Shown: positions 608 to 34,945 of the stretch, in pieces | Layout: every line of letters begins with the position of its first letter | Numbering within the stretch: the stretch's first letter is position 1 | Assembly (NCBI GenBank): GCA_020632265.1 | Contig: JACKFW010000001.1 | Coordinates: 140,223 to 204,222 of the forward strand | Source: Pseudomonadales bacterium | GTDB taxonomy: Bacteria > Patescibacteriota > Microgenomatia > UBA1400 > PJMF01 | Reading direction: 5' to 3' | DNA length: 64,000 nucleotides | Translations under genes and position numbers: made by a program | The notes under the pieces: generated by a model | Told to the model about the DNA's origin: nothing | What the model saw: the letters and a program-made list of their open reading frames with translations, nothing else | Database searches by the model: none

Positions 608-2044
608 ATGAAAGTAAGAACAAGAATGGCTCCAAGTCCTACTGGAGAAATGCATATCGGCAGTCTTTCAATTTCTTTGAAAAACTATGCTTTTGCAAAA
701 AGACACAATGGTCAATTTATTCTAAGAATTGAAGACACTGACAAAGTCAGAGAAGTTGGCGGAGGTGTCGAAGAAATTCAGAAGATTCTCAAGGCATACT
801 CAATTGATTGGGATGAAGGCCCTGGAGTCGGAGGTTCATATGGACCTTACATTCAATCAAAGAGATTAAATATTTACCAAAAAGCTGCTGAAGAACTTGT
901 TGCAAATGGAAAGGCATATTATTGTTTTTGTAGTAAAGAAAGACTTGAGCAAATTAAAGAAGAACAAAAGATTTCTAAATCTCCTTCAAAATACGATGAA
1001 CATTGTAGAAACTTATCCCCAGAAGAGATAAATAAAAAATTGGCTCAAAAAGTTGAAAAAGTTATTAGACTGAAAGTTCCATCTGGAAAAGATGTTAAAT
1101 TTAACGATCTTATTAGGGGTGAAATCGTGGTCAAGTCTGATATTGTTAATGACCAAGTTTTGATGAAAAGTGACGGTTATCCCACCTATCATTTAGCAGT
1201 CGTAGTAGATGATCATATGATGGACATCACTCACATTATGAGAGGTGAAGAGTGGATTAGCTCCACTCCCAAACATATTTTGCTTTATGAAGCTTTTGGT
1301 TGGGAAATTCCTGTGTATGCACACATACCTGTTTACTTAAATCCAGATGGCAAAGGAAAGATGAGTAAACGCAAAGGAACAGTCTCTGCACAATCTTTTC
1401 TAGATCGAGGCTACCTTCCAGATGCACTGCTTAACTTTATGATGATTTTGGGTTGGTCTCGTGACGATGAAGTTGAAATTATGAATATGAAAGATTACAT
1501 CGAGAGATTCGATCCCAAAGATGTCAGTCCGAAATCTGTAGTTTTTGATATCAAAAAACTTGACTGGATTAACGGCATTTATATTCGAAAATTAGCTCTC
1601 CCAGAACTAGAAAAAAAAATTGAAAAGTTTTTACCAAATGACTTTCCAATCGATAAGCTTGAAAAAATTTTAAATTTAATTAGAGAAAGATTAGAAAAAT
1701 TATCCGATGTAGAACAGTTATCAAGTTTTTTCTACAGAGAAATTCAATTTGATAGCACTTTATTATTGAAAAAATCTAACTCTTCGGATGTCACAGCGCA
1801 ACTAACCAAAACTATAGAGGCGCTGAAAATCATTGAGGAATGGAATACAGCTTCAATTGAAATAAAAATTAGAACTCTTCAAGAAAGTCTTGACTGGAAA
1901 AAAGGTCAATATTTTATGATGTTGAGAATTGCAGTCACAGGAAAAAAGGCAACGCCACCTCTTTTTGAAACTATAGAAGTAATCGGAAAAGAATTGGTCT
2001 TAAAAAGGCTAAAGAATGGTATTCAATTAGTTAATAATTATTAG
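608..2044 (+). CDS. gltX: glutamyl-tRNA synthetase
   Basis: Class I HIGH-type motif (PSPTGEMHIGS) and KMSKS-type motif (GKMSKRKG). Length of 478 aa and overall GluRS-like sequence. Confidence 0.9.
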   Translation: MKVRTRMAPSPTGEMHIGSLSISLKNYAFAKRHNGQFILRIEDTDKVREVGGGVEEIQKILKAYSIDWDEGPGVGGSYGPYIQSKRLNIYQKAAEELVANGKAYYCFCSKERLEQIKEEQKISKSPSKYDEHCRNLSPEEINKKLAQKVEKVIRLKVPSGKDVKFNDLIRGEIVVKSDIVNDQVLMKSDGYPTYHLAVVVDDHMMDITHIMRGEEWISSTPKHILLYEAFGWEIPVYAHIPVYLNPDGKGKMSKRKGTVSAQSFLDRGYLPDALLNFMMILGWSRDDEVEIMNMKDYIERFDPKDVSPKSVVFDIKKLDWINGIYIRKLALPELEKKIEKFLPNDFPIDKLEKILNLIRERLEKLSDVEQLSSFFYREIQFDSTLLLKKSNSSDVTAQLTKTIEALKIIEEWNTASIEIKIRTLQESLDWKKGQYFMMLRIAVTGKKATPPLFETIEVIGKELVLKRLKNGIQLVNNY

Positions 2045-2086
2045 CCCTCATTGAGTTAATTGATAGTTCTGATGTAGAATGAATTA

Positions 2087-2992
2087 TTGATGTCTGCCCA
2101 AACACAAACACCATCTGAAGAGCTTATAAAATTAAAGCGATATTTAGAAAAAACTAAAACAGATTTTTCTAAAGGTAATACTGATTTGCTTGAGTGGCTC
2201 CATGATCGAAATCTCAAAATTGAAAATCTAGGTAAAATAACCGATTCTGATCAGACAAATATTGAGAGTGCCGCTAATTCAGTAGATTCTCAAGTTATTG
2301 AAAAGTTTGCCAAAGAACCTACGGAAAAAGTTAAACTTGAAACTGAAATTTCTCTTGAAGAATATGATGCAATTTTTGAAAAGCTCGTAAACCTTCTAGT
2401 CCTCCCTGCCGGACAACTTGAAAGAGAGTCAGAACTTTATTTAGAACAGCAACTCACAGATTTATTGGGGTTTGATGTAGCAGCCAAACTTGATGACCAA
2501 CAACTCAACCATTCCACTGGTTTACTTGGTCCCGAACCTCATTTAAAACGTTATCCTAACGATGAACTAAAAAATCATGACGATGTCTTAGAAGCAGGAA
2601 TTGCTAATGCTCGAAGTGCTTTTGGCTGGTTTGTTAATCATGGCCAAATCACTCCAGAAGCAACACAGTTTGAAAAATATTACTTTAGTCTTCAACTATA
2701 CCATTTGGAAACTTGGAGCTCACACTATAAAGAGCTTAAAGAATGGTATAAATTCAGAAAAATGATTGCAATCAACCCAATGGAGAAAATTGCAGTTGTT
2801 GGGGTGGTTGGAAACATTGATCATGAAAGCCAACTAAAAAAACAATTTGGCGCTTCACCAGAAATTATTCGAGAAGGCATGATTTGGAGTCCAAAATCCA
2901 GGGGAAAAATCTTATTAATGTTTGTTGATGATCCAGAAAATAAAGTTCCATTAGGTCCAATCGATTTTAAACAGTTATTTAAGCAAAACTAA
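2087..2992 (+). CDS. hypothetical protein
   Basis: Long ORF of 301 aa with no recognisable motif. Confidence 0.45.
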   Translation: MMSAQTQTPSEELIKLKRYLEKTKTDFSKGNTDLLEWLHDRNLKIENLGKITDSDQTNIESAANSVDSQVIEKFAKEPTEKVKLETEISLEEYDAIFEKLVNLLVLPAGQLERESELYLEQQLTDLLGFDVAAKLDDQQLNHSTGLLGPEPHLKRYPNDELKNHDDVLEAGIANARSAFGWFVNHGQITPEATQFEKYYFSLQLYHLETWSSHYKELKEWYKFRKMIAINPMEKIAVVGVVGNIDHESQLKKQFGASPEIIREGMIWSPKSRGKILLMFVDDPENKVPLGPIDFKQLFKQN

Positions 2993-2995
2993 TTT

Positions 2996-3340
2996 ATGAA
3001 TAATAATTTAATTAATGTAGATTACTTTAAAAAAGTGTTTTATAAATCTCTCTTACCGCTTGAAAAGATTAATGAGTTTTTATCAACATTAAATGCAGAA
3101 AATGTTGATCCGGTTACTGAAGTTTTAATTTCTATTTTCAATGTAAGAATTATTGATACTTTGTTGGAAGATTTTGATGACCTGGAGGATAAGAAACAAT
3201 TTTTACGGATGTGCCAAGATGATTTTCAAAACCCGAAAATACTAGACTTTCTTGTTGAAAAATTTCCAGGTAGTCAAGAAATAATTTCCGAAACTATTGA
3301 AAGAACTATTCTGTCGGCAAATAAATCTCTTTCCGACTAA
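2996..3340 (+). CDS. hypothetical protein
   Basis: ORF of 114 aa tightly coupled to the preceding ORF. Confidence 0.4.
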   Translation: MNNNLINVDYFKKVFYKSLLPLEKINEFLSTLNAENVDPVTEVLISIFNVRIIDTLLEDFDDLEDKKQFLRMCQDDFQNPKILDFLVEKFPGSQEIISETIERTILSANKSLSD

Positions 3341-3491
3341 GACTCATTAATTCAAAAAAATCGAATCTTGTTACTATTCAGTTCCAAATTGGTGGCCGAA
3401 AAGATGACGTCATGATCAATAAAGAACTTTTTACAAAAAACCATCATTATCGTATTCAATTATTGTCTTCATTGTAGTATCTTGTATTAGT

Positions 3492-3881
3492 ATGCTAATT
3501 ATTAATCTACATGTTGGCTCTCGCTATCCTATCAACCGGAAAAAACTTCGGCAAACAGCTCAACTGGTTTTAAAAGAAAACAATATTGAACATGCTCAAA
3601 TCGACATCTCAATCGTAGGAAAAAGAAAAATTAAAAAACTCAATGAATCCGAATTAAAACATGAGGGTGTCACTGACGTACTTTCATTCCCTCAGCACGA
3701 AAAAAATAATTTATATGACTTCCCACTTCCAGAGGGAATTCCACCACACCTAGGTGATGTTGTAATTAGTTTTCCAGAAGCAGTACAGAGTGCAAAACGC
3801 TACGGCAAACTTGTTGATGACCAACTTTGCTTTTATTTACAACATGGCATGATGCATTTACTGGGATATCATCATGATTAA
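3492..3881 (+). CDS. ybeY: rRNA maturation endoribonuclease YbeY
   Basis: C-terminal HGMMHLLGYHHD matches the YbeY H-x3-H-x5-H metal-binding motif. About 130 aa. Confidence 0.8.
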   Translation: MLIINLHVGSRYPINRKKLRQTAQLVLKENNIEHAQIDISIVGKRKIKKLNESELKHEGVTDVLSFPQHEKNNLYDFPLPEGIPPHLGDVVISFPEAVQSAKRYGKLVDDQLCFYLQHGMMHLLGYHHD

Positions 3882-3934
3882 AATTTTTCAAAGTTACAAT
3901 AAATTACCATTTATTAAACAAAGAAACAAAAATA

Positions 3935-5677
3935 ATGTCTTGGAATAGAAAATACCGACCAACTAGAATTGAAGATCTGCACCTTGATTCGGTGCGTACC
4001 CAAATTCATCGCATGATGGATGCAGGGAAAATTCCTCAGGCCCTATTATTTTCTGGACCTAAAGGAACAGGCAAAACATCCTCTTCAAGAATTATTGGCG
4101 CAATAGTTAATGATCCAATAAACTATGATCAAGTGGATCAAGCATATTTTTCAAAAAAAGGTCAAAATGAAGCTGATAATAAAAAACCTTCCAAGACTCT
4201 AAACTCCAAATTACTCGAACCTAGTAATGATACTGATTTTGCAAATAAAATATTTGAGGGTTCATCATTTGTAGTTCAAGAGATGGATGCAGCCAGCAAT
4301 CGTGGCATTGACGACATTAGACAATTAAAAACCATGGCCTTTATGCCTCCTCAAGCTGGAAAAATGTCTGTGTTTATTCTTGATGAGGCTCATATGCTTA
4401 CAACCGAAGCATTTAATGCCTTACTCAAATTACTGGAAGAACCACCTGAGCACGCAATATTTATTTTAGCGACCACCGAAATTCACAAAATTCCTGCAAC
4501 GATTATTTCTAGATGTCAAACCATTGAGTTTCATAAAGCAACAAATCAAGAACTTTTAAACACTCTGAAACAAATACTTATCAATGAAAAAATTAAATTC
4601 GAAGACGAAGCGCTTGAAATAATTATCAATCGAGCTGATGGTAGTTTTAGAGATGCCATTAAATTATTGGAAATGACGGCCCAAACAGGTCAGGTAACAG
4701 TCAAAGAAGTCGGAATTTATTCCGCAGCCTCAATAGACAATGAAGTTACAAATTTAATTGATAACTTGTTAAATAAAGATGAAGTAAAGGTCGTAGAACT
4801 TTTTGAGGAACTTAGAAACAAAAATATCGAACAAAAATATTTTCACAAATCCTTACTTGAAATACTTCACACCAGTTTATTACAGAATTTGGGCGTTAAA
4901 GAGGGAAAACCCTTGGTAAATAAAAAAATTGCTCAATTTCTTTTGACTGAGTTAAGTGATGATTTTCTATCAACTCCGAGTCCAATCCCCCACTTAACTC
5001 TCGAATTAAAAATTCTTGAATTAATTGATAGATCAAAAAATAAAAATTCTAAGACAGTAAAAAAAAATCCTGAAAAATTAAAAGTTTTATCAAAAAAAGA
5101 AACAGGATTCAGTTCTGGTTCAAGTTTTGATTCTGGATTAAATCCTGGTTCAAATTTAAATCCTGGTTCTAATTTAAATAATCACGATAACTCTGTCGGA
5201 ATAAACGACCTAAAGCAATTTGGTTCAGTAGACTCAAATATCAACTTAGTGGATTCCATCTCTAACACAAACTTTACCCCAAAGATTGATAAATTCTTTC
5301 CAAGTGAAACCAAAAGAGCTATTGAAGCATTAGATTCATTGGAATTGAATGGTGATGGCAACAAACTTTGTCAAAAATGGCATAACTTCGTTGACTTAGT
5401 AGCTGAAAATAATTCTACCCTTGCCTCACTTCTAAGATCTGCGAAGCCAATTTCTGGAAAAATTGGAGAAGCAACTATTGGGGTTTTCTATAAATTTCAT
5501 CAAGAACAATTATCCCAACCAAAATTTAACACCCTAATTCAAGAATTCATCAAAAGTGTTGCAGACGGATATTTAAAACTTGATTTTATTTTAACCCAAA
5601 CTCCAATCAAAGCTGAATTGGTTGAAATTGAAAATAATGAATCCTTAGCTCAGGTTGCTTCTCAAGCCTTAATGTAG
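3935..5677 (+). CDS. dnaX: DNA polymerase III subunit gamma/tau
   Basis: Walker A GPKGTGKTS and clamp-loader box ILDEAHML. Followed by ybaB as in the canonical dnaX-ybaB arrangement. Contains an S/G/N-rich tandem-repeat linker. Confidence 0.9.
   Translation: MSWNRKYRPTRIEDLHLDSVRTQIHRMMDAGKIPQALLFSGPKGTGKTSSSRIIGAIVNDPINYDQVDQAYFSKKGQNEADNKKPSKTLNSKLLEPSNDTDFANKIFEGSSFVVQEMDAASNRGIDDIRQLKTMAFMPPQAGKMSVFILDEAHMLTTEAFNALLKLLEEPPEHAIFILATTEIHKIPATIISRCQTIEFHKATNQELLNTLKQILINEKIKFEDEALEIIINRADGSFRDAIKLLEMTAQTGQVTVKEVGIYSAASIDNEVTNLIDNLLNKDEVKVVELFEELRNKNIEQKYFHKSLLEILHTSLLQNLGVKEGKPLVNKKIAQFLLTELSDDFLSTPSPIPHLTLELKILELIDRSKNKNSKTVKKNPEKLKVLSKKETGFSSGSSFDSGLNPGSNLNPGSNLNNHDNSVGINDLKQFGSVDSNINLVDSISNTNFTPKIDKFFPSETKRAIEALDSLELNGDGNKLCQKWHNFVDLVAENNSTLASLLRSAKPISGKIGEATIGVFYKFHQEQLSQPKFNTLIQEFIKSVADGYLKLDFILTQTPIKAELVEIENNESLAQVASQALM
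5059..5067 (+). promoter_or_regulatory. A9 homopolymer slippery site (A AAA AAA in the zero frame) inside dnaX; -1 and +1 frames terminate within 2-5 codons
   Basis: gta aaa aaa aat cct ga. The -1 frame reads aaa tcc tga and the +1 frame reaches taa after 4 codons. It sits at about residue 375 of 580, the domain III/linker boundary. Confidence 0.5.
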
Positions 5678-5771
5678 TTTAATATTAGAACGTCTGTGGT
5701 CTATATTCCAAAGATGTAGTAGAATTAGAACGTATCCTAAGAAGATATAATTAAAAAATAGAAAGGTATCT

Positions 5772-6053
5772 ATGGCAAATCCACTAAAAGCTTTGGGCGA
5801 TCTTAATCAATTACGAAAACAAGCTCAAGCAATGCAAAAACAACTTCAAGCAGAAGAAATTAGAGTTGAAGAAGGAGATATTTTAGTAGTTATTTCAGGT
5901 GATCAAAAAATTAAACAATTCTCAGTTCAAGGTATATCAAGCCCAGAAGCAATTGATGCATTAAATAAAGCAATCAAATTATCTCAAGAACTAGCTGCAA
6001 AGAAACTTCAGTCAATGACTGGTGGTTTGGGTGGAATGCTTGGGGGAAATTAA
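5772..6053 (+). CDS. ybaB: YbaB/EbfC family nucleoid-associated protein
   Basis: About 93 aa, coiled-coil-like and Q/K-rich, with a Gly-rich tail. Lies immediately downstream of dnaX. Confidence 0.75.
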   Translation: MANPLKALGDLNQLRKQAQAMQKQLQAEEIRVEEGDILVVISGDQKIKQFSVQGISSPEAIDALNKAIKLSQELAAKKLQSMTGGLGGMLGGN

Positions 6054-6134
6054 AGTTTTGATTAAAACCTCTTATAAATAATTTATCTTCAGGTCCAAAA
6101 TCGTATTTGGACCTCTTAAGTACAGGGTTAAGTT

Positions 6135-6722
6135 ATGAAAATTTTGTTTGCTTCACAAAATAAAGGAAAGCAAAAAGAAGCAAAGATTCTCTTTAAAGAT
6201 CTAGCCATTGATCTAGTTTTCCCCGATGAATTTAAGGAATTTGAAAATTTTGATGTTGACGAAACTGGCAAAACTTTTGCTGAAAATGCAACTTTAAAGG
6301 CCAAAGCCTACGCAAAACAGATAAATTTACCATGTATTGCAGATGATTCCGGAGTAATCATTGATGGAATGAATGGACTTCCTGGAGTTCATAGCAACAG
6401 ATGGTTTAATGGTACTTCAGATGAAAGAAATCAAGAAGTTTTAAATCGCTTGAAAAATAGAACTAATAGAAATGCTAGATATATCACTGTTGCTTGCTTT
6501 TATGATCCAAATACAAAAAAATGTGTTATATTCGAAGGTGTCCTTGAAGGCTCTATTGGTACAAAAATTATTGGAAACACTGGATTTGACTACGATAGAA
6601 TTTTTATTCCAAACGGATTTGATAAAACCTATGCTCAGCTTGGGGAAAATGTAAAGAATTCCACTTCTCAAAGAGCAAAAGCATTTAAAAAAGTTAAAGA
6701 CTACATAAAAAAATATAGATAA
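6135..6722 (+). CDS. rdgB: non-canonical purine NTP pyrophosphatase (Ham1/RdgB family)
   Basis: N-terminal ILFASQNKGK-E motif, ADDSG motif and about 195 aa are typical of the Ham1 family. Confidence 0.8.
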   Translation: MKILFASQNKGKQKEAKILFKDLAIDLVFPDEFKEFENFDVDETGKTFAENATLKAKAYAKQINLPCIADDSGVIIDGMNGLPGVHSNRWFNGTSDERNQEVLNRLKNRTNRNARYITVACFYDPNTKKCVIFEGVLEGSIGTKIIGNTGFDYDRIFIPNGFDKTYAQLGENVKNSTSQRAKAFKKVKDYIKKYR

Positions 6723-6750
6723 CGGTTAAAATTTTGGCCTAGAAAGATTA

Positions 6751-7962
6751 ATGACAAAACCTTACAATCCTCCACAAATTGTTTTGGAGCGATACGCTGA
6801 TGTATTAGTAAATTTTGCTCTTAACTCTGGAGTTGGGGTAAGAAAAAATGAAGTAGTTGAGGTAAATGTGCCAGATGTAGCCAAACCTCTTGCTAAAGAA
6901 CTTCAACGTGCAATTCTTAAAGCAGGCGCTCATCCAATTATTAGACTAATTCCAACTGGGGAATTCACAAAAGATTTTTTTGATCTAGCTTCTGATGAAC
7001 AACTTACTCATTTCCCCCAAAAATATTTTAAAGAAAAAATTAATTTGTTAAACCATGTCATTTCTATTATTGCCGACACCGAACCTGAAGAACTAAAAAA
7101 TATTGATACTAAAAAAATCATGAAGTCTCAGCTTGCTAGATATCCATACAGAGAGTGGATGTTTAAAAAAGAACGCAATCATCAATTTTCTTGGACTCTT
7201 GGACTCTATGGTACTTACGCTAAAGCAAAAATAGTTGGTTTAAGTCTCGAAGAATATTGGAATCAAATTATTCGAGCTTGCTTCCTTGATAAAGATGATC
7301 CAATTCAATATTGGAGAGATTTGAATAAGCTACAACAAGAAATAAAAAATAAATTGAATAGTTTAGAGATTGAATCATTAAATGTTGTTGGCGATGACAT
7401 TGATCTAGAAGTTAGAATTGGTGCTAACAGAGCCTGGAAAACAGGTGGTGGAGCTAATATTCCAAGCTTCGAACACTTCACTTCGCCCGATTGGAGAGGA
7501 ACTAACGGTTGGATAAAGTTTAATCAACCTTTATATAGATATGGAAATATCATTGATGGAATTGAGCTCAAATTTAAAAAAGGCAAAATAATTTTCGCAA
7601 AAGCCAAGATGGGTCAAAAGGTTTTAGATGACATGATTGGGGTAAAAGATGCAAATAAACTTGGTGAATTTTCTTTGACAGATAAAAGACTTTCAAGAAT
7701 TACCCATCCTATGGCAGAAACCTTATATGATGAAAACATCGGTGGTCCATTTGGGAATACCCACATTGCGGTTGGAATGGCATACAAAGATTGTTATAAA
7801 GGAGATCCGTCACGAGTTAAAAATAGCGAATGGAAAAAAATGGGTTACAATAATTCTTCCGTACACACAGATATGGTAAGTACAACAGATAGAACCGTTA
7901 CTGCCAACCTAGTGAATGGAGGAAAAATTGTTATTTATAAGGATGGGCAGTTTACACTTTAG
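6751..7962 (+). CDS. aminopeptidase, M29 (AmpS/PepS/aminopeptidase T) family
   Basis: N-terminal YADVLVNFALNSGVGV...EVV is typical of thermophilic-type M29 aminopeptidases. About 400 aa. Confidence 0.6.
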   Translation: MTKPYNPPQIVLERYADVLVNFALNSGVGVRKNEVVEVNVPDVAKPLAKELQRAILKAGAHPIIRLIPTGEFTKDFFDLASDEQLTHFPQKYFKEKINLLNHVISIIADTEPEELKNIDTKKIMKSQLARYPYREWMFKKERNHQFSWTLGLYGTYAKAKIVGLSLEEYWNQIIRACFLDKDDPIQYWRDLNKLQQEIKNKLNSLEIESLNVVGDDIDLEVRIGANRAWKTGGGANIPSFEHFTSPDWRGTNGWIKFNQPLYRYGNIIDGIELKFKKGKIIFAKAKMGQKVLDDMIGVKDANKLGEFSLTDKRLSRITHPMAETLYDENIGGPFGNTHIAVGMAYKDCYKGDPSRVKNSEWKKMGYNNSSVHTDMVSTTDRTVTANLVNGGKIVIYKDGQFTL

Positions 7963-33631: not shown

Positions 33632-34945
33632 TTATCTCCCAACTCCTAAATACTTAAATCCCCAATTGGAAATCAGTTGAGGTGAAAATTGGTTTCTAGC
33701 ATCAATAAACCACTGAGACTTTTGTTCTTTTCTTACTTTGGAATAATCAAAGTTCAATATTTCAGGCCACTCGATTAGAGCAATAATTACATCTATTTCT
33801 TGACATGCTTCTTCAACTGACCCAACATATGAAACACTTGGATCTTCCTTTATAAAATATTTAACTAATTCTAATGATTTGGGATCGAAACCTCTAACTT
33901 GAGCTCCTTCATTTAATAAATGAGGAATAACTTTAGTGCTTGGTGCTTCTCTCATATCATCAGTGTTTGGTTTAAATGCTAATCCCAAAACGGCTACATT
34001 TTTTCCTTGAAAACCTCCAATTTTTCTTGAGTAATTATCTAATAATTTTTTAATTCTATTTTCATTAATTTCACTAATCTTATTAAACAAATTTCCATCT
34101 TCTCCAATTTTTCTTGAATAATGAGCAAGCTCTTTTACATCCTTTGGAAAACACGAACCACCATAACCAAATCCTGGATACCAATAATGCTTGCCAATTC
34201 TTTTATCAAGCCCAATTGCTTTAATTACCTCTTGGATATCAGCCCCATTTTTTTCGCATAAATCGGCAATTTGATTAATAAAAGTAATCCTTGTAGCCAA
34301 ATATGCATTATTGCTATATTTTGCCATTTGAGCAGATTCAGGAGATACTTTAATAATAATTGTATTAAATGGTTTATGTAATTCCTCCAAAACTTTGAAG
34401 GCATAATCATCTTTAACCCCAATGACAATTCTATCTGGATTCGTGGTGTCATAAACCGCCGTACCTTCCTTTAAAAACTCAGGCACCGATGCAGTGAAAT
34501 ATTTCGTTTGAGTCAATTTGGTAATTCTTGCTTCAACTTCACCCAATGTTCCCGGAGGAACTGTTGATTTTACAACTACCACAGCATTTTCATTTAAATA
34601 TGGAGCTAAAGACTCACTAGAAGCAAATACGTATTTCAAATCGGCATTTCCATCTTCAGATGACGGTGTTCCTACAGCAATAATAATCACATCAGAACCT
34701 GTAATTGCATCCTGATATGAAGTTGTAAAGGTCAGATTTCCATTTCTTTGAGCTGTTTGCAATAATTCTTCTAATTGTGGTTCAAAAAAAGGAACTCTGC
34801 TAGATTTTAAGGACTCGATTTTTTTTTCATCTACATCTAGACCCACCACCTCATGTCCAAAAGATGCATAAACTGCAGCAGATACAACTCCAACGAAACC
34901 TGTGCCAATAACTGTAATTTTCATAATTTGATTTTCTTTAAACAC
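33632..34945 (-). CDS. ugd: nucleotide-sugar 6-dehydrogenase (UDP-glucose/GDP-mannose dehydrogenase family)
   Basis: MKITVIGTGFVGVV NAD-binding motif and catalytic GGSCFPKD. Confidence 0.85.
   Translation of the reverse strand: MFKENQIMKITVIGTGFVGVVSAAVYASFGHEVVGLDVDEKKIESLKSSRVPFFEPQLEELLQTAQRNGNLTFTTSYQDAITGSDVIIIAVGTPSSEDGNADLKYVFASSESLAPYLNENAVVVVKSTVPPGTLGEVEARITKLTQTKYFTASVPEFLKEGTAVYDTTNPDRIVIGVKDDYAFKVLEELHKPFNTIIIKVSPESAQMAKYSNNAYLATRITFINQIADLCEKNGADIQEVIKAIGLDKRIGKHYWYPGFGYGGSCFPKDVKELAHYSRKIGEDGNLFNKISEINENRIKKLLDNYSRKIGGFQGKNVAVLGLAFKPNTDDMREAPSTKVIPHLLNEGAQVRGFDPKSLELVKYFIKEDPSVSYVGSVEEACQEIDVIIALIEWPEILNFDYSKVRKEQKSQWFIDARNQFSPQLISNWGFKYLGVGR

Follow-up and report, generated by a model that had tools for sequence, protein, structure and literature searches.

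The dnaX locus and its A9 run

The dnaX gene of an uncultivated bacterium was analysed in a 64,000-nucleotide (nt) stretch of contig JACKFW010000001.1 (GenBank assembly GCA_020632265.1, positions 140,223 to 204,222 of the forward strand). This whole stretch is called the window here, and all positions are counted from its first letter. Within dnaX, a run of nine adenines (A9) lies just past the part of the gene that encodes the clamp-loader domains. The gene corresponds to the open reading frame (ORF) at 3935..5677 on the plus strand of the ORF list, and its zero-frame product is a tau-like protein of 580 amino acids (aa) and 64.8 kDa. This product scored 279.6 bits against NCBIfam TIGR02397 (dnaX_nterm), for which the cutoff is 250, and contained the Pfam domains DNA_pol3_delta2, AAA and DNAX_ATPase_lid. 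Its closest solved structures in the PDB were those of E. coli gamma/tau (E 5e-40), and the alignment to NCBIfam PRK05563 reached residue 561. The ORF encodes the tau/gamma subunit of the DNA polymerase III clamp loader, DnaX. The window has a guanine-cytosine (GC) content of 31.5%. Its organism is a member of the Patescibacteria, and homologues of its DnaX are labelled as Patescibacteria group, Pacebacteria or Microgenomates. An alternative genetic code in which TGA is not a stop is unlikely, as long conserved genes are intact under translation table 11 and TGA ends 4 of the 41 long ORFs. A feature on the opposite strand at dnaX was also rejected, since only short spurious ORFs are found there.

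Codon 375 of dnaX is GTA (5057-5059) and is followed by AAA AAA AAT CCT GAA, which places the nine A's at 5059-5067 on the plus strand and includes an in-phase A_AAA_AAA heptamer at 5059-5065. In the -1 frame the run reads AAA AAA AAA TCC TGA, with the stop two codons on at 5071-5073; this stop would be reached if the mRNA gained one A or if ribosomes shifted by -1. In the +1 frame, which would be entered when the mRNA loses one A or gains two, the sequence is AAA AAA ATC CTG AAA AAT TAA and the stop lies four codons on at 5079-5081. These readings agree with an earlier note on this DNA, which had described a 580-residue DnaX with an A9 run and an A AAA AAA heptamer near residue 375, the sequence aaa-tcc-TGA in the -1 frame and a TAA after four codons in the +1 frame. 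An mRNA with ten A's (A10) is predicted to encode a protein of 379 aa and 42.8 kDa with the C-terminus ..VKKKS, and an mRNA with eight A's (A8) one of 381 aa and 43.1 kDa ending in ..VKKILKN. Overall, the computed sizes of the predicted gamma products span 379-382 aa and 42.8-43.2 kDa.

An AlphaFold2 model of DnaX was built from a 36-sequence alignment. Clamp-loader domains I-III (residues 1-369, 3935..5041, plus strand), which are present in both tau and the predicted gamma, were modelled with a high predicted local distance difference test score (pLDDT), and the chain was folded up to the final helix of domain III, formed by residues 354-369. The following residues 372-460 (5048..5314) form a disordered, hypervariable linker rich in serine, glycine and asparagine, which has a pLDDT below 50 and occurs in tau only. 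Residues 457-553 (5303..5593) constitute a separate folded alpha/beta domain with a pLDDT of ~80 that is missing from the predicted gamma. This C-terminal domain is DnaX_C-like: it gave a collinear match to Pfam DnaX_C below threshold (E 0.035), and a relative from the same family (P0036) matched DnaX_C significantly with 31.6 bits against a cutoff of 26.2. In the alignment of the 35 closest homologues (58-80% identity), the conserved block finished at ..LELKILELIDRSKNK, and the linker was hypervariable save for a short VKKN(P) motif at the run. The A9 run occupies codons 375-378 and starts six residues past the last domain III helix of the model. According to the model, it is placed past the clamp-loader core and ahead of the tau-specific parts, which is the position expected of a gamma-generating site; the earlier note had likewise located it just after the clamp-loader domains and before the linker. 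The tau/gamma boundary in E. coli and Thermus falls at the same place (PMC5009743, PMC1088944).

Conservation of the run among orthologues

The earlier note held that the position of the run and its double termination were unlikely to be accidental, but a single AT-rich sequence gives a weak case for this. Codon-order shuffles of dnaX produced a run of at least nine A's anywhere in the gene in 37% of trials, and inside the boundary region, defined as the 165 nt following domain III, in 4% of trials. In the dnaX background of the clade, a -1 stop lay within two codons at 28% of positions and a +1 stop within four codons at 29%. The case was not rested on single-genome statistics, because the shuffles show that the run alone is non-significant; only upon comparison with orthologues does the A-run pattern appear far beyond chance. 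The window contains three runs of nine, all of them sense-strand A9 in coding genes, namely dnaX, gltX and the ORF 33632..34945 on the minus strand. The gltX run (1611-1619, plus strand) and the run in ORF 33632..34945 (34819-34827, minus strand) lie in ordinary genes and have the form GAA AAA AAA ATT/ATC, encoding E-K-K-I. The gltX run, taken as a control, was interrupted (AAA CAA AAA) in an 80%-identical relative.

For the comparison, 31 non-redundant orthologue loci with ~40-86% identity were used from among the matches listed. A metagenome scan with the domain III sub-alignment returned at least 8 loci, and a genome scan with the full alignment returned at least 80 loci, which were mostly from other phyla and served as the outgroup control. 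The longest A-run in the boundary region was A10 in 4 loci, A9 in 15, A8 in 4 and A7 in 6, whereas 2 loci had none, so that 23 of the 31 orthologues carried A8-A10 just past domain III. The density of runs of at least eight A's was 6.5 per kb at the boundary against 0.2 per kb elsewhere in the same ORFs (odds ratio 33, P=8e-25), and 21 runs of at least nine A's were found at the boundary against none in the remaining 44.8 kb of these ORFs. In dnaX genes of other lineages, a run of at least eight A's near the boundary was present in only 4 of 63 among the matches listed (P=2e-11). One further GTDB genome locus (L016, ~1376-1420) is N-masked right after TCT AAA AAA, at the position of the run, and is unscorable.

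Codon choice at the run was also biased. At sites encoding [V/I]KKN, the valine or isoleucine codon was GTA or ATA in 11 of 12 cases compared with a background of ~23% (P=1e-6), and the lysine codon was AAA in 24 of 24 compared with 78%. The adjacent proline codon was free to vary (CCT, CCC, CCA), and therefore synonymous sites are not frozen in general. The run also outlasted shifts of phase and of the encoded residues (KKN, KKK, AKKT), occurring as GTA AAA AAA AAT, NNN AAA AAA AAA(A) and GCA AAA AAA ACA. One locus with a GC content of 49.5% (L011) carried A10, with a -1 stop two codons on and a +1 stop zero codons on. At the orthologue sites with at least eight A's, a -1 stop was found within two codons in 13 of 21, against the 28% background (P=1.2e-3), and within nine codons in all 21. 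The distance to the +1 stop was indistinguishable from background at these sites (within nine codons in 14 of 21, against 51%; P=0.11). From this comparison, the A-run appears to be conserved beyond what the protein sequence requires, and selection seems to act on the nucleotides of the run and not on the peptide. Conservation of the run in orthologues, which had been proposed earlier as a check, was thus found in 23 of the 31, with the synonymous sites kept.

Probable slippage at the run and its alternatives

The A9 run is probably a conserved programmed slip site of dnaX, at which transcriptional slippage of the Thermus type would give rise to a gamma of ~43 kDa. RNA polymerase would slip on the nine A's and yield mRNAs that vary in the length of the run. 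Messages with nine A's, or with nine plus or minus three, would be translated into the full-length tau of 580 aa, comprising domains I-III, the linker and the C-terminal DnaX_C domain. With the other run lengths, ribosomes would enter the -1 or +1 frame and terminate two to four codons later, and the product would be a gamma-like DnaX, 379-382 aa long, with its C-terminus just beyond domain III. We infer in this way the slippage of the organism's RNA polymerase on A9, the accumulation of gamma and the ratio of tau to gamma. A small share of gamma may come from -1 ribosomal slippage on A_AAA_AAA. Slippage of the Thermus type is favoured because nine to ten A's are conserved, more than the seven that a ribosomal shift needs, because stimulators were not found, and because alleles shifted in opposite directions occur. 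The proposal of the earlier note that this is a likely tau/gamma-producing site gains support from the A8-A10 runs of the orthologues, the kept synonymous sites, the close -1 stop and the A10 and A8 alleles. As to the mechanism, for which the note had named both E. coli and Thermus as models, the Thermus type fits better, and stimulators of the E. coli type were not found. In many bacterial genomes, slippage-prone runs are visibly selected against from a length of nine (PMC1088944).

Bacteria are known to make gamma, or to rescue tau, by four devices, which occur in E. coli, in Thermus, in Caulobacter and in two-ORF A10 genes (PMC5009743, PMC1088944, PMC3711429, 10.1101/2022.11.10.516041). Thermus dnaX undergoes transcriptional slippage at an A9 run with stops nearby in both frames (Larsen et al. 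2000 PNAS, as described in PMC1088944 and PMC5009743), and the window gene resembles Thermus thermophilus dnaX in the gene itself, in the sense-strand A9, in a tau encoded by one uninterrupted ORF and in the stops near the run in both non-zero frames. In those descriptions no requirement for an E. coli-type hairpin is reported for Thermus thermophilus, and the short product is devoid of the C-terminal tau domains, as is predicted for the window. In contrast to the GC-rich thermophile, the host of the window is an AT-rich (31.5% GC), uncultivated bacterium of the Patescibacteria/Microgenomates type, and because the host is AT-rich, the run and its stops are less distinct from the background than in Thermus. 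A further difference is that slippage at the window gene is predicted from sequence. In Caulobacter, gamma is produced by proteolysis (10.1101/2022.11.10.516041).

E. coli dnaX employs a -1 ribosomal frameshift at A_AAA_AAG, together with a Shine-Dalgarno (SD)-like element and a hairpin (PMC5009743). The enterobacterial gene and the window gene share the predicted outcome and an in-phase lysine heptamer where the gamma-coding part ends, and the -1 frame runs into a stop nearly immediately in both, one codon on in E. coli and two in the window. However, the heptamer of the window is A_AAA_AAA inside A9, and not the A_AAA_AAG reported as the most shift-prone (PMC5009743), and the stimulators of E. 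coli had no counterpart in the searches. The downstream stem-loop that had been proposed as a check was not significant at the run of the window (z = -0.78, minimum free energy -12.7 kcal/mol); two stretches around and downstream of the run, 73 nt and 81 nt long, had z-scores of -0.78 and -0.86 when folded. In 23 orthologues, the 60 nt downstream folded with a z of -0.30 on average and had no structure in common. The 20 nt upstream of the run, AATAAAAATTCTAAGACAGT, contain no GGAG-like element, and no SD-like element was conserved upstream in the 23 orthologues. An Rfam scan at E<=10 returned no DnaX element and only noise matches. The model of a stimulated -1 frameshift was rejected because the folding, SD and Rfam searches were all negative. 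The only tRNA genes in the window are tRNA-Gln and tRNA-Glu, with no tRNA-Lys among them.

Two of the ~35 close homologues are annotated as truncated proteins. In one of them (L091, a contig of the NCBI metagenome-assembled genome GCA_018816485.1), the run is A10, the zero frame yields 379 aa ending in VKKKSQKFRG* and the C-terminal domains go on in the +1 frame; this locus is 99.8% identical over 3.2 kb to another relative (L086) that has A9 and a single ORF. In the other (L092), the run is A8, the zero frame stops after 371 aa and the remainder lies in the -1 frame. Gamma is the zero-frame product in both. Frameshifts in both directions are a criterion for transcriptional realignment (Antonov et al., PMC3711429). 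Two-ORF A10 dnaX genes in which tau needs recoding occur in Chlorobium, Flavobacterium, Coraliomargarita and others (Antonov et al. 2013, PMC3711429). Their layout, with gamma in the zero frame and tau requiring recoding at the poly-A run, is that of L091 and L092, whereas dnaX of the window is one ORF with A9. Within the clade, the split form looks like an allele that turns up occasionally in a mostly single-ORF gene and not like a fixed state. A search with the C-terminal domain for orphan C-terminal ORFs yielded 2 proteins from 3 candidates, which provides no usable frequency. Blochmannia dnaX (PMC3017870) resembles the genes of the window clade in its small AT-rich genome, its homopolymer in dnaX and its frameshifted alleles, for which a rescue in the RNA is presumed. 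Nevertheless, the Blochmannia tract lies downstream of the gamma site, in the tau-only region, and was read as gene erosion, whereas the run of the window sits at the boundary of domain III and has been retained even in distant relatives. Gene callers will mark A8 and A10 alleles as truncated dnaX or as pseudogenes, as with a 379-aa NCBI protein (P0014), and this can bias the completeness and the essential-gene content assigned to metagenome-assembled genomes.

The main rival to transcriptional slippage is an unstimulated -1 ribosomal slippage, in which two tRNA-Lys re-pair on A_AAA_AAA or ribosomes slide on poly(A) and terminate at the TGA at 5071-5073. It is consistent with the X_XXY_YYZ phase, which is kept in the window and in every relative with A7 only (L006, L019, L094, L095, L097), with the exact E. 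coli motif A_AAA_AAG in one relative (L003), and with the -1 stop alone being nearer than background while the +1 stop is not. Nevertheless, a heptamer would suffice for such a shift, yet 19 of the 31 relatives have nine to ten A's, and the A8 and A10 alleles require correction in opposite directions. The failure to find a conserved downstream hairpin, an upstream SD-like stimulator or an Rfam DnaX element, and the report that in E. coli A_AAA_AAA shifts far less readily than A_AAA_AAG (PMC5009743), weigh in the same direction and leave ribosomal slippage an unlikely source of gamma. That the run has no recoding function at all, being a by-product of a Lys-Lys(-Asn/Lys) motif in a lysine-rich linker of AT-rich genomes with slippage as mere noise, is quite improbable. 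The codon usage of the clade, with AAA as 78% of the lysine codons, the frequency of long runs in the dnaX shuffles, the two further sense A9 runs in ordinary window genes, the commonness of near alternate-frame stops and the eight of 31 relatives with A7 or less would all accord with such a by-product. It would leave unexplained, however, the third-position A of valine and isoleucine codons in 11 of 12 sites against the 23% expected, the persistence of the run through changed phase and encoded residues, and the confinement of runs of at least nine A's to the boundary (21 against none in 44.8 kb of the same genes). The A10 in the locus with 49.5% GC, the significantly close -1 stop and the lack of conservation of the gltX control run also speak against it.

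A third alternative places the variation in the DNA, as a phase-variable contingency locus in which replication slippage toggles the population between forms of the gene that have tau in frame (A9) and forms that have gamma alone in frame (A8, A10), and in which this toggling rather than transcript heterogeneity is selected. Alleles with A8, A9 and A10 were indeed seen, among them the two 99.8%-identical contigs that differ by one A. However, the tau form of dnaX is essential in the bacteria studied (10.1101/2022.11.10.516041), and an allele devoid of tau would be lethal unless slippage of RNA polymerase or the ribosome restored it, which leads back to slippage at the run. Truncated genes were found in only 2 of ~35 close homologues, and single-base homopolymer errors are possible in metagenome assemblies. 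A locus of this kind is highly improbable.

Several points weigh against a programmed transcriptional slip site. In the single genome the pattern lies within reach of chance (P ~0.04 for the position), near alternate-frame stops being common, and is weak in itself. The window contains 3 sense runs of at least nine A's where 7.4 are expected (P=0.07), which is a trend only; that the genome is under selection to avoid long A runs was rejected as a finding on that account, as 64 kb is too short to decide it. According to Baranov et al. (PMC1088944), the RNA polymerases of some AT-rich organisms may keep slippage on 9-nt runs in check. Not every member of the clade has the site, six relatives having A7 only and two having no run. 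The orthologues are related by descent, so the P values overstate their independence, although the direction and the size of the enrichment are clear despite this kinship. Errors of assembly in the homopolymer could account for the A8 and A10 alleles, and both the slippage and the gamma product, in this organism and its relatives, are predicted from DNA alone.

A wider proposal, which is improbable, treats the A-run of the clade as a two-level switch. Replication slippage would generate the A8, A9 and A10 alleles, swapping tau and gamma as the zero-frame product even between 99.8%-identical strains, and efficient RNA-polymerase slippage would keep all of them viable and set the ratio of tau to gamma. 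If this were true, the clade, together with the Patescibacteria lineages described below whose DnaX is of gamma length only, would form a natural series on what tau and gamma are each needed for.

Other lineages and neighbouring features

Full-text literature on dnaX together with the candidate phyla radiation or Patescibacteria contained no report of recoding that could be found. The kind of site is already known from the Thermus A9 and the A10 two-ORF genes; what is new is the lineage, within the candidate phyla radiation, whose members have very small genomes and no cultured representatives. Each independent lineage that keeps a gamma-making device argues that the short form is selected, and a lineage of the candidate phyla radiation is now added to them.

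In nine other loci (L020, L025, L028-L032, L034 and L036, from Saccharibacteria, Paceibacterota, Gribaldobacteria, Harrisonbacteria and others), the dnaX ORF is ~370-398 aa long and ends in a true stop right past the last domain III helix. A tRNA gene or an unrelated gene comes next, and no C-terminal tau domain was found in any frame. In these other Patescibacteria lineages DnaX appears to exist solely at gamma length, unlike in the window clade with its tau and predicted slip site. An in-phase A_AAA_AAG near codon 370-385 was present in L003, where CAA AAA AAG stands just past domain III, in L068 and L075 (Mariprofundaceae and Ghiorsea) and in L039 (Nealsonbacteria). A9 runs were found at codon 379 in L023 (Buchananbacteria) and at codon 372 in L075. 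The candidate sites in L003, L023, L039, L068 and L075 suggest further lineages with dnaX recoding.

Across the 51 long ORFs of the window, homopolymers in coding sequence differed strongly between the strands. Compared with codon-order shuffles, sense runs of at least seven T's were depleted (12 against 33 expected) and sense runs of at least seven A's were enriched (61 against 45 expected), while sense runs of at least ten A's numbered 0 against 3.0 expected. The AAA+ module of DnaX contains a poorly conserved insertion of low pLDDT at 4109-4240 (residues ~59-102, with residues 76-85 below 50), around which the hidden Markov model matches break into two stretches. E. coli DnaX has a four-cysteine zinc module, and the insertion, at the place where E. 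coli DnaX carries it, is free of cysteine. The gene order around dnaX (608-7962 in the window; L091-L100) is clade-wide and consists of gltX, two small unannotated ORFs, ybeY, dnaX, ybaB, a Ham1/RdgB-like gene and an M29 aminopeptidase gene.

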